A stretch of DNA of 64,000 bases from Candidatus Yanofskybacteria bacterium (GTDB lineage Bacteria > Patescibacteriota > Minisyncoccia > 2-02-FULL-40-12 > IGHO2-01-FULL-4-A), in NCBI GenBank assembly GCA_016181175.1, contig JACOZV010000001.1, positions 75,778 to 139,777 on the forward strand. Direction: 5' to 3'. The first letter of the stretch is position 1. Each line of letters starts with the position of its first letter. A program made the position numbers and the translations under genes. Under the pieces are notes generated by a model. It was not told where the DNA came from. It worked only from the letters and a program-made list of their open reading frames with translations, and did no database searches. Of this stretch, positions 9,181 through 42,587 are shown in pieces.

Positions 9181-10659
9181 GTGCAAAAATCAAAAAGTAA
9201 AAATCAAAGTTACGAAATTCCTAAAGAAGTTAGGGAGGTTTTGAATAAACTTGAGAGCACGGACTACGAAGCCCATATTGTCGGCGGGAGCGTGAGACAC
9301 TTGATAATGGGCGAACAGCCGAATGACTGGGATATAACCACCAACGCTAAACCCGAAGAAATACAACAACTTTTTCCCGATAGTTTTTACGAAAACAAAT
9401 TCGGAACTGTTGGTATTAAAACCCGTAGCGACGATTCGGTTTTGCAAGTAGTGGAGGTTACGACTTATCGCATTGAGTCTAAATATACCGACAAAAGGCA
9501 TCCCGATGAAATTAAGTATGCCGATAAAATTGAAGACGACCTGAAAAGGAGGGATTTTACAATTAATGCCCTCGCAATGAACAGCAGCGGAGAAATTATT
9601 GACTTATTTGGCGGTCGTGAGGATATAAAAAATAAGATTATTCGCGCAGTCGGTAATCCCGGTGAAAGATTCAGCGAAGACGCTTTGCGTATGATGCGAG
9701 CGGTTAGGTTTGTGGCCCAGCTTGGTTTTGAAATTGAACACGACACCCTTGAAGCAGCCAGGGAAAATAACGGACTTATGGCGGCTGTATCCAAGGAGCG
9801 CATTCGCGATGAGTTTGTTGGAGTAATCAACTCACAGGATGCTTACAAAGGCGTAGACATGCTTCGCGAAACAGGATTGCTGAAATTTGTTTTGCCGGAA
9901 CTGTTGGAAGGTGTAGGCGTCGGTCAAAACAAACACCACATTTATAATGTTTGGGAGCACAATCTGCTAGCTCTCAAATATGCTTGTGACAAAAACTATT
10001 CGTTTGAAGTTCGTATGGCCTCATTGCTTCATGACGTCGGTAAACCCAGGAGTAAAAGAGGGGAGGGACCAGATTCTACTTTTTATGGTCATGAGGTAAT
10101 CGGTGCGTTCATGGCCGCACAGATTATGGATCGTCTTAAATTTTCCAAGGAGCAAGCCGATAAAATTATTAAATTGGTGCGTTATCATCTTTTTTACTAC
10201 AATGTTGGCGAGGTTACGGAATCGTCGGTCAGGCGTCTTGTCGCGAATATTGGCAAAGAAAATGTTGAAGATTTGATAAAAGTGCGTGAAGCCGATAGAA
10301 TCGGTTCGGGTGTGCCTAAGGCTAAGCCATACAAGTTGCGCCATCTGCAGTTTATGATAGACAAGGTGGCGCGGGATCCTATTTCTCCCAAGATGCTCAA
10401 GATAAATGGAAATGACATAATGGAATTGCTGGGCATTAAGCCGGGTGTAAAGGTTGGCATGATTGTACATGCACTTATGAATGAAGTGCTGGACAAACCA
10501 AGTAAAAATACCAGAGAATCTCTTGAAGCAAGAGCCAGAGAATTAAATCAACTTTCAGAAACTGAACTTGCTGAATTCGGCAAAAAAGGTAAACAAAAAG
10601 CTTTAACCGAAGAAGAAAAAGAAATAGAAAAAATTAAAGCGAAATATTATGTGGAATAA
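9181..10659 (+). CDS. cca: CCA-adding enzyme (tRNA nucleotidyltransferase, PolyA-polymerase head plus HD domain), GTG start
   Basis: GGSVRHLIMG…DWDI…RRDFTINALA nucleotidyltransferase motifs, then an HD domain (LLHDVGK). Confidence 0.85.
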   Translation: MQKSKSKNQSYEIPKEVREVLNKLESTDYEAHIVGGSVRHLIMGEQPNDWDITTNAKPEEIQQLFPDSFYENKFGTVGIKTRSDDSVLQVVEVTTYRIESKYTDKRHPDEIKYADKIEDDLKRRDFTINALAMNSSGEIIDLFGGREDIKNKIIRAVGNPGERFSEDALRMMRAVRFVAQLGFEIEHDTLEAARENNGLMAAVSKERIRDEFVGVINSQDAYKGVDMLRETGLLKFVLPELLEGVGVGQNKHHIYNVWEHNLLALKYACDKNYSFEVRMASLLHDVGKPRSKRGEGPDSTFYGHEVIGAFMAAQIMDRLKFSKEQADKIIKLVRYHLFYYNVGEVTESSVRRLVANIGKENVEDLIKVREADRIGSGVPKAKPYKLRHLQFMIDKVARDPISPKMLKINGNDIMELLGIKPGVKVGMIVHALMNEVLDKPSKNTRESLEARARELNQLSETELAEFGKKGKQKALTEEEKEIEKIKAKYYVE

Positions 10660-15800: not shown

Positions 15801-16276
15801 CGAGAAATATTAAAAGATTTACAATGTGGCCTGAATTTGCCGGAGCAGTAATGACTGGCAATACGACAAATAGTGTTGGAACTATGACTTCTGATAATGA
15901 GTCTTCGTCTTCATTCAGGAGTTATTACCAATGGACTGCGACATCAGCTACAACACAGGAATACAAAATATTTGTGAAGGTTCCAGTACCCAACGATTTC
16001 AGTGCATTTAATACTGGAGTAAAGGTCGGTGCCTATAAGAGTAATGCTAATGAGAGGATTTTGTTTAGCATAAGGGATACGGCTAACGCCATTTCTAATA
16101 TTGCCAGTGTTAGCGTGGCGACCTCGGCTGAAAACTGGACACTAACCACATCTTCAACACCAACAGGTACTTATGCTTCGGGCAGCGATATGATTTTCAT
16201 ATTTGAAATGCTTTCTAGCTCTAGCCAGAGGGTACGGCTAGGTTCAATAAGTTTTGATTATTACAGTAAGTTTTAA
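12824..16276 (+). CDS. Giant membrane-anchored surface protein 1 (1150 aa): cytoplasmic N-terminal domain, one TM helix, Gly/Ser/Thr-rich extracellular region
   Basis: TM segment AAVTAMFATAAFIFLLIFGMTVL near residue 185; poly-G runs; Thr/Ser/Asn/Gly-rich beta-rich C-terminal two-thirds; GTG start. Confidence 0.7.
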   Translation: MSFITLFETQEQLEKSLESIDYSSVNFFVKDGKRFIEASFLAKEFGYEPGHVARLARQNKIDSFYDQPSRRWYVTKESLAKYQEQAHLNKKLAGLKSANLVKPIIQQTTIAPQEKAISVETDLEAGQLRLAETGRTVLSEESADISIDNDAVSSPVLSESVLSNFHTHSQYSASSRLKAAVTAMFATAAFIFLLIFGMTVLPKDLSLVKDLTSKLSAVPTFFLENHGTVSRPAFLPVKPTGQYLNLAVVFYQDFIEEPIEKFFDFYENGPVLSPLVAPKDFYLTVVPQPKPKINFSFLYNFKNLFFAPVEKLADSSVGFTEQILIIWGKMSQIEILPAETKSVPLFSQVKITSPNFASIADSIADQSFIKNFKQVLNNEKLALPSLNLISTQGLAGGLNKGFADLSQAADTFSFLPKLPDRVTGFFSDLKEIILSPLKDIANYGDNLTEQSPTFPDQISQPESSPAGVKPPTTFSPAKSSGPVYVATPIDQSFIKKLVKQFFDEEKSALTPLNLISVQGSVDDLNQKLADLVSRVNQIPPPLQYIGGGGGGSTTTVGGGDAQVAGSKLTVGVTVVNSGSIGTTSGNFSIDSGGGTTTISDNLTVTGLLSASTASSHSFIGDLSISDDIELTGDASASAFFGAGLNAMTGTTGCSGASADKLLYNATTGKFSCGSDQNSGGGGGAPLGIEIVNSGAAFGTHYGSISFDASHFTVSLADLSASSSYVRLDWGAGGPASLSQDETVAGKWLFNSASTQFNNLLELNGTASVSVANTNFNINLNGTGDFVIQDAGSTVFTVTDTDTITLNNGSADLVSITGNASISSNLELTGTGFASASYFYAQPGTAALPAFAFGNDTDTGIFRSAANQLGLATNGVERLTIDPSGYVGIGTTSPTTKFEVQGTASASNFLTVGAIQVAGGVSKTFSRFGLDDTGHNLIAASDLLVSGMLEINSNTFFDASASVAVNFDVGSGANVIKIRPNAGNNSGFRLEGNARNIKRFTMWPEFAGAVMTGNTTNSVGTMTSDNESSSSFRSYYQWTATSATTQEYKIFVKVPVPNDFSAFNTGVKVGAYKSNANERILFSIRDTANAISNIASVSVATSAENWTLTTSSTPTGTYASGSDMIFIFEMLSSSSQRVRLGSISFDYYSKF

Positions 16277-34612: not shown

Positions 34613-35151
34613 GGCCATAATCAAATATATGAATAAATTCCACAATAATTTCATAACAAAAAGCGGCTGAAGCCAAGTTCTTAATTTGCGTTTACAAGCA
34701 GCCGCGTAAATCGCGGATTTTTTATCAAAATTGAATATATTAGAGCCATTATTGGCTGTCGTCGGGCATCTCCTTACGGAGGTGCCCGACGGAAGCTAAC
34801 ACTAAACCGATTGAATAGATTGCAATTTAAAAAATAAATAGTTAGCGGGTATCCCGGTTAGAGCTTGCGATTGCCACAAGTGGCAATCCACCTCTAACGG
34901 GATTAAAAAATTGCATTTCTGCATTTAGAAATGAGTTCCAAAATGCAGAATAAGTAGATTGAATTCGATCTATCAATAGAGATCGAGGATTTAATCTTGT
35001 AAGGAATTATTAAGGGCGTATGGAGGATGCCTTGACACCAAAAGGCGACGAAGGACGTGGCGTGACGACGATATGCTTCGGGGAGCCGTCTAGCGGGCTT
35101 TGATCCGGAACATCTCAGTAGCCAGAGGAAAATAAAACAAACCCCGCACCT

Positions 35152-35273
35152 TTTGAGCACAAGATTTTATTTGGCATCCGCATTGTGATGCGTGGCTGAC
35201 GGATATTAATTATTTGTTGTTTGCGCACTACATTTCGGAATCTAATTGACACTAGTGCTTAAAAGGTGCGGGG
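35152..35273 (+). repeat. Hairpin insertion in the 23S 5' domain, flanked by 13-bp inverted repeat CCCCGCACCTTTT / AAAAGGTGCGGGG (family B)
   Basis: Inserted between GAGGAAAATAAAACAAA and AACATTTCCTAAGTAGCGGCGAGCGAA; same IR termini as 57160..57227 and 42283..42458. Confidence 0.65.
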
Positions 35274-35652
35274 AACATTTCCTAAGTAGCGGCGAGCGAA
35301 AGGGAAACAGTCTAAACTCTTGTTTATTAAGTTTACTTAGTGAGTGGGAGTGTTGTAGGAAGGATTTTTTTCTAAACACTGGACATCTGCATATACTCTT
35401 GTGCGGATATCCAGGAAATTAGGATTGAGTTACAAAGTTAGATGTTAGCTGAACGGTCCTGGAAAGGCCGACCAAAGAGGGTGATAGTCCCGTAAACCAA
35501 AACCTCTAATCTCAATCAACCGAGCACATAACTTTTAGGAGTTATGAGCTCGGTTGGAAAATCCTCTCCTGAGTACCCATGGAGCAGACTATCCGTGGCG
35601 AAGCCGGGCCTACTACGGTCCAAGACTAAATACTTTTGGTGATCGATAGTGA

Positions 35653-35686
<34 letters not shown>

Positions 35687-35799
35687 GGTTAGGGGAGTGA
35701 AATAGAACTGAAACCATATGCCTACAAAGAGCCGAAGCCCTTCCCGTCGCAAGACGGTCAGGGTGACGGTGTGCCTATTGAAGAATGATCCAACGAGTT

Positions 35800-36128
35800 T
35801 TTACAAGTGGTTTATCCAGCTTCACTTTTGGTTTATGATGACTTTATGTGGATAGTTTATATTATTCAGAACAATCTAACTGAAAAAATATATATTGGCT
35901 GTACAAATGATCTCAAGAAACGAGTCGAAAAGCATAACAGCCAAACAAATAAAGGTTATACAAGACGACTTATCGGTCAATGGATTTTGATATACGCGGA
36001 AGCTTATAGAAGCAAAGAAGATGCTTTTCGACGGGAGTCAAAACTCAAAGACCACGGTAGTTCTAAACATGAATTGAAGAAGAGAATCAGCAATTCATTG
36101 TTAAAACCAAAAGTGAGGCTGGATTAAG
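35800..36128 (+). mobile_element. Stem-bounded intervening sequence in the 23S helix-25 region carrying a GIY-YIG ORF
   Basis: 19-bp stem CCAGCTTCACTTTTGGTTT (35816-35834) / AAACCAAAAGTGAGGCTGG (36104-36122) enclosing the ORF; inserted between …GAATGATCCAACGAG and GGATAAGCCCGTATAGGG…GGAAACCGAGTG. Confidence 0.65.
35846..36127 (+). CDS. GIY-YIG nuclease-family protein (YhbQ/UPF0213-like) encoded inside the 23S IVS
   Basis: WIVYIIQNNLTEKIYIGCTNDLKKRVEKHN…YTRR…WILIYAEAYRSKEDAFRRESKLK is a GIY-YIG motif set; an alternative GTG start lies at 35807. Confidence 0.7.
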   Translation: MWIVYIIQNNLTEKIYIGCTNDLKKRVEKHNSQTNKGYTRRLIGQWILIYAEAYRSKEDAFRRESKLKDHGSSKHELKKRISNSLLKPKVRLD

Positions 36129-36582
36129 GATAAGCCCGTATAGGGTGCATCCGTAGGGAAACCGAGTGTTAAAAGCGCGACTTAATCGCTTGTAAAAGAC
36201 CCGAAGCCAGGTGAGCTACCCATGGCCAGGATGAAGTTTGTCGAAAGACAAATGGAGGTCCGAACTAGTTGATAGCGCAATATCATTGGATGAGCTGTGG
36301 GTCGGAGTGAAAAGCTTATCGAACCTGGTAATAGCTGGTTCTCCCCGAAATGCCTTTAGGGGCAGCGCCGGTGAGTAGTCGCGGGGGTAGAGCTCTGAAT
36401 GGTTTGCCGTGCCAGCAATGGTAGGCTTACCAAACAAACTACGAATACCGCGGTGTAATCGCCGGTAGTGAGACTGTGAGGGCAAAGCTTCATAGTCGCG
36501 ACGGGATTAGCCGTTTGACCACCGCTTAAGGTCCCTAAATCTATGCTAAGTGTTAAAGGAAGTCATTTTCCTTAGACAGGTA

Positions 36583-36624
<42 letters not shown>

Positions 36625-37305
36625 CAGCTTACTGCTCGAATTCTAATTTCGGTTAGACGAGGAAAGTGGCGCCGAAGATTCAACGGGGCTAAGCATAGTA
36701 CCGAATGCGTGGACCGTCCCGATTTATCGGGATGAGTGGTAGGGGAGCACTTCAAGCCGCTGCGAAGGTGTGTCGTGAGGCATGCTGGAGCGCTTGGAGG
36801 AGAGAATGTTGGAATGAGTAACCACAAGCGAGGTGAGAACCCTCGCCGCCGTAAGCCTAAGGTTTCCTCCGCAATGTCAATCACCGGAGGGTTAGGCGAC
36901 GCTAAGGATAACCGTGCCTACGGGCATGGGAAGCCGATGCTAAGCCGGTTAATATTCCGGCCCTTCCATATGTATTGATGGAGCGACGGAGGATATAAGC
37001 TGGAGCAGATTATTGGATTTCTGTTTTTGGATTCCAGGATTGTCGTTTGGAAAATCCGGCGACTGACTTTAATGTCAAAATACGAATTTGAAGAAATCAC
37101 GGGTAACCGTGGGATTCCAGTGAAGAGCCTTCCAAGAAAAACTTCTAAAATTATGCATATGGGAAACGTACTTAAAACCGACACAGGTGGGCTAGTGTAA
37201 GTGCACTAAGGCGAACGGGTGATTATTGGCTAAGGAACTCGGCAAAAAAGTGGCCGTACCTTCGGTATAAGGCCTACCTGACCGTGCCTCACTGCGTTCG
37301 GCACG

Positions 37306-37410
37306 AATTTTTAAATTTTTAATTTTATAATTTTAATAAATAATTTCTAATGTTTAAAAATTAAAAACATTAAGATTTATTTAAAAATTAAAAATTGGAA
37401 ATTAAAAATT
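37306..37410. repeat. AT-rich palindromic hairpin repeat (family A), full ORF-less copy inserted in a variable 23S helix near the helix-63 region
   Basis: AATTTTTAAATTTTTAATTTTATAATTTTAATAAATAATTTCTAATGTTTAAAAATTAAAAACATTAAGATTTATTTAAAAATTAAAAATTGGAAATTAAAAATT; arms are mutual reverse complements; central mini-hairpin TAATGTTT/AAACATTA; flanked by 23S exon sequence. Confidence 0.75.
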
Positions 37411-37632
37411 CTAACAAGCCGAGCATAGCGAGGCGCGGTTGGGTCGCAGCTAACGAACCCCTGGCGACTGTTTATCTAAAACACAACTCTGTGCTAAGCC
37501 GAAAGGCGCTGTATACAGGGTGACGCTTGTCCAGTGCTGGAACGTTAACGGTGGAGGTGGTATGCAGCAATGTGTATTGCCAACGCCCGAAGCGCCAGTG
37601 AACGACGGCGATAACTATAATCGTCCAAAGGT

Positions 37633-38949
37633 TTTGAGAATTTGTCAGATGGCAAGTTCTCAAAAGGACTTGGCCGATTGTAGTGAATTTATATTGATAA
37701 ACAAAAGTAGCTGCCTATCGCGTGACGAAAGTTTTACGCGATGTCTTAAAATATATTCGATCATATGCTGGAAAGTCTGAGTATCCACAACTACTATGGT
37801 ATGATGTTACCTTTGGTGATAAAATATATCTATGCCAAGTAAAAATGTTAGTGGTGCAGACGATCAGCAGGAAAGTCTGAAAATGATGGGTTGGATAACA
37901 GGTTTTGTTGATGGGGAAGGATGTTTTACTGTCAGTATATTCAAGAATTACAAAGCTCAACGCAAGCTCGGATGGCAAGTATTCCCTGAGTTTGTAGTTT
38001 CCCAAGGAGAGAAGAGCTTGAGCGTTCTCGAACTGATCAAGAACTACTTCAACTGTGGTTATATAATAAAAAATAAAAGGAACGATAACCACCACGAAGA
38101 TATGTTCAAATACTGTGTGAGATCTTTGTCGGATCTAGAAACCAAAATTGTGCCATTCTTTACCCAAAACAAACTCCTAACCGCAAAGCGAAGAGATTTT
38201 ATAATCTTTAAGGAAATCCTAAAAATGATGGGTCGCAAGGACCACCTTAACCTTAAAGGACTTAGAAAAATTGCCTCTCTAGCTTTGCAGATGAATCGTA
38301 AAAAAAGACCCAAGTTTTCAGAAATCCTCAGAGACTAAACGTCGAACCCGCTCAAATTTTTGGACTTAAATAAAAAAAACCTCAACTGAGGTTTCGATGA
38401 ATTTGCTATTAATAATCAATTATAGGAGCTTGTTCGTGCCGCTTATCTATACCTTTAAATCTACTGTCGGTACGGATTTTCCTAATGGTATTTCGTGGTA
38501 ATTCACATTGAATCAGCATAATATCATTGTTTCTGAGTTTAACATTAAATTCTACTATGCCATATTCTATAAAATATATAATAAGAGATGCTACCCAGCG
38601 TACATGAACACGAAGAGTTAATTTTTCCATGAATTTTCCACCTTTCTTTTGTGATTTAAAATGAACTTTGAAATGCAACACCAATAAACTAAATGTTTAC
38701 TGGTTTGCCCTACTCGCCCTGATTTGTAAAAGGATGAGGAAAATAAGGATAACCCTTTACTTTACTCGTCTTTTAGCTGATTTTTATTGTAAAATAAGGA
38801 CAAATCAGATGTTGCACTTCGGGGGTAAATGCGAGCGAAGAAACCCAGTGGTAAGTATAAATCAATTAAAATTTAGTGTCAATAGTCCAAAAATTTGAGC
38901 GGGAAGATATAGTCCGAACTGCATGGCGACATGCAGAGTAACATACTTA
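37633..38949 (+). mobile_element. Intron in 23S at the E. coli ~1917 site (CCAAAGGT | AGCGAAATTCC) carrying a LAGLIDADG homing-endonuclease gene
   Basis: Exon junction reconstitutes AAGGTAGCGAAATTCC; 1317-nt insert; internal 19-bp long-range pairing CCCGCTCAAATTTTTGGAC / GTCCAAAAATTTGAGCGGG; 3' motif GAACTGCATGGCGACATGCAGAG shared with the insert at 39499. Confidence 0.7.
37832..38338 (+). CDS. LAGLIDADG homing endonuclease (single-motif, I-CreI-like), intron-encoded
   Basis: 168 aa; MMGWITGFVDGEGCF LAGLIDADG motif. Confidence 0.8.
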   Translation: MPSKNVSGADDQQESLKMMGWITGFVDGEGCFTVSIFKNYKAQRKLGWQVFPEFVVSQGEKSLSVLELIKNYFNCGYIIKNKRNDNHHEDMFKYCVRSLSDLETKIVPFFTQNKLLTAKRRDFIIFKEILKMMGRKDHLNLKGLRKIASLALQMNRKKRPKFSEILRD

Positions 38950-39169
38950 AGCGAAATTCCTTGTGGGGTAAGTTCCCACGCGCATGAATAGCGGAACGAC
39001 TGGGGGACTGTCTCAGCCAATAGCCCGGTGAAAATGCAATGTCAGTAAACGAGTTTTTATGCGTAGTGTAGTGGCGAGCCTTTGAAGTCATGTTCTTGGA
39101 TGTGATGGAGGCGACAATGAAACAGCCATCTTAAAGACTTGTAATTCTAACTGGTGTAACCCTAGGAGG

Positions 39170-39441
39170 TAAAATATGTTTTCTGATAAAAAACCAATAG
39201 AATATTGGATGCAAGAACTAATGAATCTAAAACATGAATGTGATCTGATGACAGAAAGGATAAGGAGTACCAGAGCGAACATTGAATATCTAATAGATTC
39301 AATCAAAGACAGAAGTCCAAAAGGAGTTGACCCAGAAAAATGGAAAAAGTTTTTAGCAGAATGGAATTCGTTTCAAATTGAATATAGTAACTTCCAATTT
39401 TAGTTTAAGTCGCCCTATTTTTAGGCAAGTTTTATTTGCCT
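39170..39441 (+). mobile_element. Stem-bounded IVS in the 23S domain V (helix-79-equivalent) region with a 75-aa ORF preceded by a perfect SD
   Basis: 14-bp stem GTAACCCTAGGAGG / CTTCCTAGGGTTAC encloses the insert; AGGAGGTAAAATATG gives SD spacing of 6 nt. Confidence 0.6.
39176..39403 (+). CDS. Small helical hypothetical protein encoded in the 23S IVS
   Basis: 75 aa (MFSDKKPIEYWMQELMNLKHECDLMTERIRS…); strong SD; no recognised family. Confidence 0.45.
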   Translation: MFSDKKPIEYWMQELMNLKHECDLMTERIRSTRANIEYLIDSIKDRSPKGVDPEKWKKFLAEWNSFQIEYSNFQF

Positions 39442-39498
39442 CTTCCTAGGGTTACATCAAGACAGTGCCTGGTGGGTAGTTTAACTGGGGCTGTTGCC

Positions 39499-39995
39499 TT
39501 AACGCGGTATTCGTTACACCGCATGGGGCCTACTGAAAGTAATTTCAGTATGCAAATTCGACTATATGCTGGAACCCCCGCGCATATCTGAATACTCTAC
39601 TTAGTAGCTGAGCTACTAAGTAAGTGAAAATTTTGGATCGATGCGGACAATCAGCAGGGAAGTTCTTCAATTAAATTCAGGACCCCTCAACGACTGTACG
39701 TCGAGTGCCGCGAAGCGGCAATGATACAGTCTGAACTGCATGGCGACATGCAGAGCTGGGCAGAAATGACCCGGCCGCCTATAAAATTTGGTTTTTTAAG
39801 GCCATGTTTTATGGGAAGGGTTTAGCGAATAATGCCTTATAGCACCGTTGAAGCTGTGCGATTGCACGGTTTGCGAGCAGTATAATTTTTCACTGCGAGT
39901 AAAATCCACAGATTCAACGGAGCGTAGCAACCTCGCTGGGGTTGCAAGCGGTGATAGAAGGTATTATTCGCTAAACCTGCAAAGTAACACAATTG
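39499..39995 (+). other. ORF-less structured insertion (intron or IVS) in 23S between GGGGCTGTTGCC and CCTAAAGAGTAACGGAGG
   Basis: About 497 nt with no ORF of 60 aa or more; contains GTCTGAACTGCATGGCGACATGCAGAG, near-identical to the 3' motif of the 37633..38949 intron, and a 20-bp internal stem GGTTTAGCGAATAATGCCTT / AAGGTATTATTCGCTAAACC. Confidence 0.5.
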
Positions 39996-40250
39996 CCTAA
40001 AGAGTAACGGAGGCGTTCATTAAGGTCGGCTAGCTGCGGATGGAAATCGCAGCGATAGTGTAAAGGCAAAAGCCGGCTTAACTGCGAGACGGATGTGTCG
40101 AGCAGGTGCGAAAGCAGGACTTAGTGAACCGACCGTTGGTCGTAGGACCGCGGAAGATCATCAGACAAAAGCTACTCCGGGGATAACAGGCTGGTACTGC
40201 CCGAGCGTCCCTAGCGACGGCAGTGTTCGGCACCTCGATGTCGGCTCGGC

Positions 40251-40769
40251 TTTTAATCGACTTTTTAACTGTTTGAGCCCGAGGAAAAGACATCAAAATA
40301 TAAATCACGGCGCAATAATATAGGAATATATTATTGACTGCTAACTTATATCGGTAAAACCCATTCGGTAAACTCGGGGTAATACCGAGAGAAGTTATTT
40401 GTTCAAATTTTTGGAAAAATAAAAAAGACCCTATTGGGTCATGTAAAATATGGCAAATGGTAAGGTAATGGCTAAAACAAATTGAAAGCGACAGAGACCA
40501 TCAGTATAGATTTTTTTGAAAGATCCAAGGGCTATAAGAGAGTTAAAAATCCAGAAAATAAGCATTAAAACCAGAGATATTAGCAGTTGTTGGGAGTTCA
40601 TTATTGCCTCCTAAATTAAATATAATTGATTATTAAATTATTGTCAATACCCAATTAATTTGACTCCAAAAATTTGAACAAATAACACTCGTAGAGACTA
40701 AATGTTAGCCATCCAATCTGCCAATCAGTGGAGGATGAAGTTATGGTCCAATGCACATAGTAATATGTG
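40251..40769 (+). other. ORF-less insertion in 23S after CACCTCGATGTCGGCTCGGC (E. coli ~2510 region); boundaries unresolved
   Basis: About 500 nt without an ORF; internal long-range pairing TTGTTCAAATTTTTGGAAAAAT / GACTCCAAAAATTTGAACAA resembles the module in the 37633..38949 intron; exon resumes near GAAACATGCGTGAGACAGGTTGGTCC. Confidence 0.4.
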
Positions 40770-40840
40770 GAAACATGCGTGAGACAGGTTGGTCCTTATC
40801 TGGTGCGGGCGTTGAAGTTTGAGGGGGGTTGTCCCTAGTA

Positions 40841-41614
40841 AGAAATTGCTACTTCACGCAGTAATGCGTGATGACAACTCGGCTAATAACGGTGAAATCT
40901 TATTATTTTTGTGTTCGTTGATAACTACAATTGTCGCGGTCCGACAATTATAGTACAATTTACTTGAGGACCAGAAATAATTAAGACGATACCGTGGGAA
41001 GTCAATCTAAAATTGATTTAGCATATATTGCAGGTTTTCTTGATGGTGACGGAAGCTTGATGTTACAAATCAAGAGACGCAAAGATGGAACCAAAAAGTT
41101 TCGCTTTATGTCTACAATTTGTTTTTATCAGGATAGTAACCACGAAGAATTTCTGCATTGGATAAAAAATATTCTTGGAATTGGTTATTTGACTCAAAGA
41201 GATGATGGCATGAGTGAACTAAGAATTAATGGATTTAAACAAGTTAAAGATATAATAAAAAACTTATTGCCATTTATTAAATTCAAGAAAAATCAAGCCA
41301 ATGCTATTTATGAAGCAACTAGCATGATGAGCAGTAAGATTCTAAGCCGTTTAACCAAGCAGGAATTGTTAAAAATCGTAGATTTAATGCTTATAATTCA
41401 AAAGCATAATTATAAATCTAGAAGCAAGAAAACCAAAAAAGAACTCATTCAATTATTAGATTTGACCCCGTAACGACTTGTCGAGTTTAGCTCGACGGAT
41501 GATTAGCGATGAGATTGCATCAATGGTTAATCATAACATGCCGATTCCCTGAATCCGCTTTTTGCGGGAGGGAAAAGATATAGTCTACACTTATAGTGAT
41601 ATAAGATTTTGTGA
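40841..41614 (+). mobile_element. Intron in the 23S sarcin-ricin loop (CCCTAGTA | CGAGAGGACCGG) carrying a LAGLIDADG homing-endonuclease gene
   Basis: Flanking exons reconstitute CCTAGTACGAGAGGACCGG exactly; 774-nt insert. Confidence 0.7.
40994..41473 (+). CDS. LAGLIDADG homing endonuclease, intron-encoded
   Basis: 159 aa; LAYIAGFLDGDGSL LAGLIDADG motif. Confidence 0.8.
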   Translation: MGSQSKIDLAYIAGFLDGDGSLMLQIKRRKDGTKKFRFMSTICFYQDSNHEEFLHWIKNILGIGYLTQRDDGMSELRINGFKQVKDIIKNLLPFIKFKKNQANAIYEATSMMSSKILSRLTKQELLKIVDLMLIIQKHNYKSRSKKTKKELIQLLDLTP

Positions 41615-42282
41615 CGAGAGGACCGGGATGAACGAACCTCTGGTCTACCAATTGTTTTGCCAAAAGCAGCGTTGGGTAGCTATGTTCGGTTCCGATAAGC
41701 GCTGAAAGAGATTTGAGGCGAGGCGAAGCAAAAACAACGAGGCATGGCTTGTGCCATGTCAAGGAGTTTTTGTGAAGCCGCAGCTCAAATATATAAATTG
41801 CAGCAGAAATGATTATTAAGTCGGAGGCACAAAGATTCGTGAGAGATTATCACGTTGATAGGGCGCAGGTGTAAGCGCGGTAACGCGTTCAGCCGAGCGC
41901 TACTAATAAATCATCAATTCCTTACAAGATTAAGTCCTTATGACCTTCGCGCTTAAACTGCGGAGCCCCCAAAATCTAAGGGGCTGGCCGCAGTTAAGCC
42001 GCAAGGATTTGCCCAATTTCTTCGTTAAGCACTCCGGTGCTCCCTCGCCATACCTCTAGTATGGCTCGGTTCACTCCTCGTGCTTGCCTCGAACTTGGCC
42101 AAACGCGAAGGTCAAAAATGCAAAAACACCCCTTTAACTATAAAAACTAAAAACCATTTGCTTGGTGGTTATACCGGAAGTGTCCCACCCGATCCTCCCG
42201 CCCATGTACACATAGGCGGGATTGCGATTTGCAGTTGTGCTCGTTACACTGTGCGCAAGCAAATCGGTAACATTCAGACTTG

Positions 42283-42458
42283 CCCCGCACCAAAATTAAA
42301 AATTAAAGCCAGCAAGTTGGTGACTATACTGTGAGTGCTCCACCTGTTCCCATTCCGAACACAGAAGTGAAATCTCGCAAGGCCCATGATAGTACAGTGC
42401 TTAGCATTGTGCGAAAGTAGGTAGTCGCCAGCTTGCTGGTTTTAATTTTGGTGCGGGG
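42283..42458. repeat. Family-B inverted repeat (CCCCGCACCAAAATTAAAA … TTTTAATTTTGGTGCGGGG) enclosing the 5S gene as an extended processing-stem/hairpin
   Basis: Left arm 42283-42307, right arm 42440-42458, 19 bp perfectly complementary. Confidence 0.6.
42308..42439 (+). rRNA. rrf: 5S rRNA with a 16-bp extended terminal helix
   Basis: GGTGACTATACTGTGAGTGCTCCACCTGTTCCCATTCCGAACACAGAAGTGAAATCTCGCAAGGCCCATGATAGTACAGTGCTTAGCATTGTGCGAAAGTAGGTAGTCGCCAGC; ends GCCAGCAAGTTGG / CCAGCTTGCTGG pair. Confidence 0.8.
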
Positions 42459-42587
42459 ACTCGGTAGTGAAATCTTCCAGGGCCTATGATAGTATCGTGC
42501 TTAGCATGATACGAAAGTGGGTCACCGCCAGACAAATGGTTTTTAGTTTACTTTTATTTTAGTAGTGATCCAGCTATAATTAATCTA

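Follow-up and report, generated by a model that had tools for sequence, protein, structure and literature searches.

An ORF-carrying insert of the intervening-sequence type in helix 79 of a Candidatus Yanofskybacteria 23S rRNA gene

Whether the open reading frames (ORFs) carried by intervening sequences (IVSs) in bacterial 23S rRNA genes are expressed or useful has been debated since the 1990s. The question is raised again by a 64,000-nucleotide (nt) stretch (hereafter the window) of contig JACOZV010000001.1 from a Candidatus Yanofskybacteria bacterium, in which the 23S rRNA gene carries, in helix 79 (H79), an insert with an ORF of 75 amino acids (aa). The initial annotation of this window described an IVS-type insertion in domain V, closed by a stem that encloses the ORF and supplies a perfect Shine-Dalgarno sequence, and took this arrangement to imply translation. 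What kind of insert is it, is its ORF a gene, and does the stem serve the translation of that gene?

Position, stem and relatives of the helix 79 insert

The insert proper occupies positions 39163-39448 of the window (286 nt, + strand) in place of the H79 tetraloop in domain V (E. coli ~2211-2214), where E. coli has only the H79 hairpin GTGGACCCG-TGAT-CCGGGTTGC. This placement, obtained from the E. coli 23S map and the Rfam large-subunit (LSU) rRNA alignment, agrees with the earlier assignment to domain V and narrows it to the apical loop of H79. Directly 5' of H79 lies the 23S exon for helices 76-78 (H76-H78), the rRNA of the L1 stalk (39050-39151, +); Rfam LSU model positions 2125-2216, which cover these helices, aligned to 39050-39141 with 44.3 bits. 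On the 3' side, the exon 39460-39499 (+, E. coli ~2224-2262) lies between the insert and the next group I intron. It is 91% identical to E. coli by blastn, with E. coli 2225-2258 aligning to window 39461-39494, and 96% identical to the related gene L128. The rRNA is colinear on both sides of the insert, and its flank pair is TTCTAACTGGT...TCAAGACAGTGCCTGG.

The 5' arm of the extended H79 (39152-39169, +; TGGTGTAACCCTAGGAGG) consists of H79 proper (39152-39162) and the extension TAGGAGG (39163-39169), and the 3' arm (39442-39459, +; CTTCCTAGGGTTACATCA) of the extension CTTCCTA followed by GGGTTACATCA of H79 proper (39449-39459). The arms pair over 18 consecutive base pairs (bp), two of them G-U; this pairing was found by repeat search and is present in both the minimum-free-energy and the centroid folds. 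So is a 7-bp hairpin, AGGCAAG-TTTTA-TTTGCCT (39423-39441, +), which adjoins the 3' arm. The stem does enclose the ORF (39176-39403, +; ATG at 39176, stop codon TAG at 39401-39403), and the 75-aa protein quoted in the initial annotation was reproduced. The 272-nt interior is AU-rich (31% GC) and folds no better than its shuffles (z = +0.39), which gives it the look of mRNA and not of structural RNA; conserved structure is confined to the basal stem and the 7-bp hairpin. No promoter or terminator was found on the + strand of the insert, and a cmscan of 38940-39500 at E <= 10 placed no group I or group II intron or other Rfam family in it.

Orthologous 23S genes were found through the conserved flanking protein genes and through the single protein homologue of the ORF. 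Most relatives' contigs break before H79, and by way of the neighbouring genes only three reach it: L123, from a Yanofskybacteria metagenome-assembled genome (MAG, HYX20) whose flanking protein is 91% identical, and the Yanofskybacteria relatives L128 and L141. The homologue lies on L129, an independent Joint Genome Institute (JGI) metagenome contig with a 23S fragment. A scan of genome-contig DNA with the 3' flanking exon returned 120 loci, 116 of them irrelevant because the TTTAAC variant is common to Actinomycetota; L028 could not be interpreted, and three loci from other Patescibacteria (L005, L055 and L110) were useful. In these three the H79 tip is an E. coli-sized hairpin of ~20 nt with no ORF. 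It is a near-perfect hairpin of 75 nt in L128 and a hairpin of 108 nt in L141, both ORF-less. The tip reaches 308 nt in the window, where it runs from stem to stem over 39152-39459 (+); the insert of L123 is 292 nt long with an ORF of 70 aa, and that of L129 exceeds 300 nt with an ORF of 64 aa.

The stem was tested for covariation over 18 positions per side in the window, L123, L141 and L128, with the register taken from the conserved flanks. Standard pairs filled 97% of the cells, and 10 of the 18 pairs had changed on both sides. The covariation measures were reached by 0 of 500 shuffles, and pairing fell to 39-50% when the columns were slid by one to three. This covariation in four genes identifies the H79 stem as a selected RNA structure. 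The 7-bp hairpin likewise keeps its position and size with a different sequence in L129 (TGGCGAG-TTAAT-CTCGCCA) and in L123 (AGCCGAA-GTAA-TTCGGCT).

The cargo of the stem follows a different pattern. The L123 stem is homologous to that of the window, with four compensatory pair changes, and the 70-aa ORF that it holds (MSRKQKISRKEINR...) shows no similarity to the window-type ORF by BLASTP or hhalign. The L129 stem is 100% identical to the window's and encloses a homologous ORF. In the H76-H78 exon, the window is nearer to L123 (91% identity) than to L129 (79%), whereas the insert matches L129 and not L123. This discordance, seen over ~100 nt of exon, suggests lateral exchange of the insert or replacement of its interior; horizontal transfer has also been proposed for classical IVSs (survey by Tsurumaki et al. 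2024, PMC11270868). The cargo of H79 is exchangeable: one relative has a homologous ORF there, another an unrelated one of similar size, and others none. Conservation of the ORF in related inserts, which had been proposed as a check, therefore held for L129 and failed for L123 and for the plain hairpins of L128 and L141.

The 75-aa ORF and the Shine-Dalgarno motif

Of 2000 dinucleotide shuffles of the 272-nt interior, one contained an ORF of 75 codons or more. In each of the three ORF-bearing inserts the ORF exceeds the length expected by chance, with 1 of 2000 (window), 24 of 2000 and 5 of 2000 (L123) shuffles reaching the observed length, and the three ORFs fill about 70-85% of the interior (p 0.0005 to 0.012). 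The sole exact match to the window ORF was the NCBI hypothetical protein HYT61_00605 of a Candidatus Yanofskybacteria MAG, a 64-aa version that starts at the ATG at 39209. A word-indexed search of 5.8 billion proteins returned the ORF itself only. Among 1.84 billion cluster representatives searched exhaustively with HMMER, there was one true homologue, P0122 (64 aa, E 2.4e-9, 48% identity), which is encoded on L129 within the stem identical to the window's; two repeat proteins from the same search share only a DPxKW-like motif and were set aside. Exact look-ups of the window ORF and of the window's LAGLIDADG protein found no other contigs, and 90%-cluster look-ups of the three ORFs gave singletons only. 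The metagenome protein scan worked with exact 8-mer seeds, so it missed L129; its candidate L122, with DPEKWKKF in a 549-aa repeat protein and no rRNA, was rejected as a seed-driven false positive.

The window ORF and P0122 share the C-terminal motif P-x-GVDPEKWK-x-FL-x-EW-xx-FQ-x-EYSNFQ (back-translated as GGNGTNGAYCCNGARAARTGGAAR), and the conserved core begins near residue 9-12. Tryptic peptides of the ORF include FLAEWNSFQIEYSNFQF and GVDPEK. Indels between the two ORFs are in frame, and 10 of the 30 identical residues are encoded by different codons. Nei-Gojobori dN/dS was 0.46/1.59 overall and 0.19/1.55 over the last 30 codons; synonymous differences are in significant excess in the C-terminal half (binomial p = 0.0012). 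AlphaFold2 predicted a helical hairpin with a mean predicted local distance difference test score (pLDDT) of 88, in which a helix at residues 8-43 and a loop are followed by a helix at 53-71. As far as a single pairwise comparison can tell, the ORF is most likely a real gene, the conserved part of which would be the loop and the second helix.

The view that the protein belongs to no recognisable family stands after profile, structure and sequence searches. Nothing significant was found in Pfam, PHROGs, NCBIfam, PDB sequences, phage tblastn or viral contigs, and Foldseek found nothing in the PDB at E <= 0.001. A match to LntA_helical (E 0.0045) failed the cut-off and reflects generic helix similarity. 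PF05635 gave no match to the window ORF at E <= 1, while the positive control, an ORF in domain I of L123, scored 109 bits, and no endonuclease domain was found in the ORF.

The hexamer AGGAGG (39164-39169, +) is separated from the ATG at 39176 by the 6-nt spacer TAAAAT (39170-39175, +), just as the initial annotation had it. AGGAGG occurs 11 times on this strand in 64 kb, so its position next to a given ATG is unlikely to be due to chance. All predicted folds pair the hexamer with CUUCCU (CTTCCT, 39442-39447), so that the stem conceals the motif no less than it provides it; on these models, ribosomes could reach AGGAGG only while the 3' arm has yet to be transcribed, or once the stem has been cleaved or melted. 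The idea that the stem supplies the Shine-Dalgarno sequence thus applies to the window and breaks down in the relatives. The same AGGAGG in L129 precedes an in-frame TGA, and the ORF there starts 48-54 nt past the motif (42 nt if TTG 775 is taken as the start). In L123, the stem has AGATGG, and a separate GGAGAGG lies outside the stem, ahead of the ATG. Judged from these sequences, coupling of the Shine-Dalgarno motif to the stem is peculiar to the window genome and no conserved design. The C-terminal synonymous excess speaks for translation of the ORF only indirectly.

Proposed excision and translation, and competing explanations

With moderate confidence, we lean toward an RNase III-type IVS in the H79 apical loop: it would be excised without religation, and its ORF would be translated on nascent or released RNA. 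The insert would be transcribed within the pre-23S rRNA from the rRNA promoter, with no promoter of its own, and its ends would pair as the 18-bp helix that continues H79, next to the conserved 7-bp hairpin. This long duplex would be the likely handle for post-transcriptional excision, most plausibly by RNase III without religation, and cleavage would leave the 23S rRNA in two pieces joined by the remaining base pairs of H79. The unstructured, mRNA-like interior would carry a gene for a helical-hairpin protein of 64-75 aa, and ribosomes would read it either on the growing pre-rRNA, ahead of synthesis of the 3' arm, or on the fragment once released. In the window only, the start codon adjoins the AGGAGG of the stem, and closure of the stem would mask the ribosome-binding site. 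Among relatives, the cargo would be swapped for a homologous ORF, an unrelated ORF or none.

The insert has the anatomy of an IVS: the tip of a helix is replaced, the ends of the insert form a long duplex, there is no ribozyme core, and the insertion is sporadic and variable in relatives. An RNase III gene is present on a related Yanofskybacteria contig (L124). PMC11270868 reports the removal from transcripts of rRNA insertions of the Candidate Phyla Radiation (CPR), protein-coding ones included, and proposes a probable RNase III IVS nature for non-intron insertions at classical IVS sites. Together, the IVS anatomy, the reported removal of CPR insertions and the RNase III gene favour RNase III-type excision.

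Several points weigh against this reading. Only one homologue of the ORF was found, the N-terminal half of the ORF has no detectable protein-level constraint (p = 0.28), and a count by codon position showed no significant concentration of differences at third positions. The L129 homologue has no recognisable Shine-Dalgarno sequence, and in a crude survey GGAG lay upstream of the first ATG in 3 of 26 long window ORFs; Shine-Dalgarno-led initiation may not be the rule in this host. This copy of the 23S gene, as assembled, lacks two essential segments and may be a pseudogene or a misassembly. H79 also accepts retained insertions, as the eukaryotic expansion segment ES31L emerges there. The best-studied IVS ORF, S23p of Coxiella, is apparently untranslated in vivo and decaying (PMC4990558).

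The insert might instead be retained in the mature 50S subunit as an expansion segment, like ES31L or the mycobacterial H54a "handle", with the ORF a passenger that is rarely or never translated. We consider this unlikely, while recognising that H79 is known as a surface helix tolerant of insertions, that its basal helix is kept by covariation and that it is extended in all sampled Yanofskybacteria. ES31L, which emerges from the same helix, shows that the site sterically tolerates large insertions, but ES31L is retained, structured and non-coding, whereas the window insert has an unstructured, coding interior. An expansion segment should have conserved structure throughout, and the interior, at 31% GC, shows no more structure than shuffled sequence; it is nearly filled by an ORF under partial purifying selection, and it is replaced wholesale between close relatives. 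The reported removal of CPR rRNA insertions from transcripts (PMC11270868) also speaks against retention. Improbable in our estimate is that the ORFs arose by accident or are in decay within a rapidly changing spacer, and that recent common ancestry or constraint on the RNA explains the similarity to L129. The lone homologue, the effectively unconstrained N-terminal half, the lack of third-position bias, the missing Shine-Dalgarno sequence in L129 and the ORF-less hairpins of two relatives would all fit such a view, for which the decay of the Coxiella S23p ORF is a precedent (PMC4990558). Long ORFs in three independent inserts (p 0.0005 to 0.012) do not, nor do the C-terminal synonymous excess, the different codons at 10 of 30 identical residues, the in-frame indels and the confident AlphaFold2 model.

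The initial annotation had also raised the case that the region is part of a larger intron, and a group I intron does begin 40 nt downstream in a gene crowded with introns and with LAGLIDADG and GIY-YIG ORFs. The insert could on this account be a group I peripheral domain, a degenerate ORF or a remnant of a homing endonuclease. The conserved exon 39460-39499 separates insert and intron, and L123 has an H79 insert and no intron at the downstream site; the insert is independent of its neighbour. Unlike a group I intron with a homing-endonuclease gene, the insert has no catalytic core and no LAGLIDADG, GIY-YIG, HNH or His-Cys box; no intron model matched within 39153-39459, no endonuclease domain is present, and any known homing-endonuclease fold needs more than a two-helix hairpin of 75 aa. 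This account is essentially refuted, and the IVS-type assignment of the initial annotation is upheld. An assembly artefact, a chimeric join in the MAG, is for the insert essentially excluded as well. Suspicion comes from the two deletions of conserved exon in the same gene and from the similar locus-tag style of the L123 MAG (HYX20 vs HYT61), which has a 42-nt tandem duplication nearby; the same stem with a homologous ORF nevertheless recurs on the independent JGI contig L129, a homologous stem with another ORF is found in L123, and the flanks are colinear with rRNA on both sides.

A bolder extension of the IVS reading, which we regard as a long shot, is that the H79 tip is an exchangeable "cargo slot" that expresses small helical proteins from the strongest transcription unit of the cell, their translation gated by closure of an rRNA helix. 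Were this so, rRNA folding would control a functional protein gene nested within it; the Shine-Dalgarno sequence of that gene would be exposed only as long as the 3' arm is not yet transcribed, or once RNase III has cut, and the proteins might have the ribosome or rRNA maturation as their target in cells that have lost many biogenesis factors.

ORF-bearing 23S IVSs are known in Leptospira, Coxiella burnetii, Xanthomonas and Brucella, where the cargo is S23p (PF05635, 23S_rRNA_IVP). Like these, the window insert is not an intron, replaces the tip of a helix, is closed by a long stem of its own ends, carries one small all-helical ORF in sense orientation with the rRNA, and is sporadic and apparently exchangeable. 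Unlike the S23p IVSs, which lie in helix 45, 25 or 9, it lies in helix 79 of domain V, and its cargo is a predicted two-helix hairpin of ~70 aa with no PF05635 match, as opposed to the ~115-aa four-helix bundle of S23p (110-120 aa). The ORF-less IVSs of Salmonella, Proteus, Campylobacter and Rhizobiales occupy helices 25 and 45. The 75-nt hairpin of L128 and the 108-nt hairpin of L141 resemble this Salmonella type as long, near-perfect hairpins that replace a helix tip; the window insert differs from that type in its helix, in being three times longer and in coding for protein. Non-intron insertion sequences in CPR/Patescibacteria rRNA genes were reportedly described by Brown et al. in 2015, and the window insert represents the same phenomenon in the same group of organisms. 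Excision by RNase III has been demonstrated for the Coxiella IVS, whereas here it is inferred; the Coxiella ORF has a poor Shine-Dalgarno sequence, which RNase III removes, whereas the window ORF has a perfect AGGAGG before its ATG (PMC4990558).

According to Tsurumaki et al. (2024, PMC11270868), 82% of CPR 23S genes carry insertions, and many of these are not introns of group I or group II; GIY-YIG or 23S_rRNA_IVP proteins are encoded by some, and most lie at the top or base of stem-loops. In that survey, 469 non-intron 23S insertions are classed as having "no annotated ORFs". Unlike the ORFs counted there, which were limited to those with Pfam annotation, the window cargo is small and unannotated, so small cargos of its kind would have been missed; the present locus suggests that CPR insertion surveys limited in this way overlook small protein cargos. 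The window insert belongs to a known class, the ORF-carrying rRNA IVS, with a new cargo and at a site that is new relative to helices 9, 25 and 45; H79 may be one of the 14 numbered hot spots of PMC11270868. These findings suggest that helix 79 joins the IVS-type sites. With a canonical AGGAGG at ideal spacing, a conserved C-terminal motif with a synonymous excess and a stem that would occlude the ribosome-binding site, the window ORF is a test candidate for the translation of rRNA-embedded genes.

The host 23S rRNA gene and its other insertions

The 23S rRNA gene that carries the insert is ~7 kb long (~35000-41950), swollen by many insertions, and as assembled it lacks two conserved segments. 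At the junction 39049/39050 (window 39037-39050), 66 nt of universally conserved sequence are absent, corresponding to E. coli ~2034-2099 with H72, A2058-A2062 and the 5' strands of H73-H75; in L123 the sequence is gatgctgactacccgcaccaagacggaaagaccccggaagctttactatagcttggtattgggtta. Another 76 nt (E. coli ~2510-2589), which take in H90-H92 with the A loop and the U2585 region, are absent between 40252 and 40778, with a 525-nt block in their place. Neither segment was found when sought across the whole 64-kb window, and the near match on the minus strand at 9303, inside a coding region, is due to chance. Both segments are present in L123, L128 and L141, and L129, which ends within H79, has the first only. 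Misassembly is the simplest explanation, a pseudogene copy the alternative. The H79 insert itself is real on either account, being confirmed by independent assemblies; both accounts limit the conclusions to be drawn on this copy of the gene. The absence of two segments of the peptidyl-transferase centre from a MAG 23S gene is a warning about rRNA assemblies of intron-rich CPR genomes. L123 has a 42-nt tandem duplication (16015-16097, two copies of ATGAATAGCGGAACGACTGGGGGACTGTCTCAGCCAATAGCC) in a conserved 23S region near the site of the 66-nt deletion in the window, probably another assembly error. Many orthologous public contigs end inside the 23S gene, which indicates that intron-rich 23S genes assemble badly.

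The insertions were mapped by alignment to E. coli 23S and to the insertion-poor relative L128. A non-intron insertion at the helix 25 site (35742-36125) carries a GIY-YIG ORF (35807-36127, 106 aa, Pfam 64.6 bits) and is presumably what the initial annotation had counted as the first ORF-bearing IVS; it agrees with the published location of CPR GIY-YIG ORFs in non-intron insertions (PMC11270868). A group I intron with a LAGLIDADG ORF (37633-38949) lies upstream of the H79 insert. Downstream follow an ORF-less group I intron (39500-39995; Rfam match 39472-39753, 67.6 bits), the 525-nt block (40253-40777) and a LAGLIDADG intron (40844-41613). The 3' 180 nt of the block resemble a group I core with a below-threshold Rfam score of 39.6 bits, and the block is possibly chimeric, made of two introns that have lost the exon between them. 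The domain I insertion of L123 (11848-12201), with its 23S_rRNA_IVP ORF (PF05635, 109 bits), has no counterpart in the window.

The 5S gene (42316-42433) lies downstream of the 23S gene, and directly downstream of it is a truncated second 5S-like copy (42459-42549), 75% identical to 42359-42449 in the 3' part of 5S. No 16S gene was found in the 64-kb window, which covers 35 kb upstream and 21 kb downstream of the 23S-5S pair, and the rRNA genes appear to be unlinked in the host genome. In the helix 45 region, a classical IVS site, L128 (12551-12695) has ~120 extra nt and the window only 25; this region is another variable IVS-type site in the lineage.

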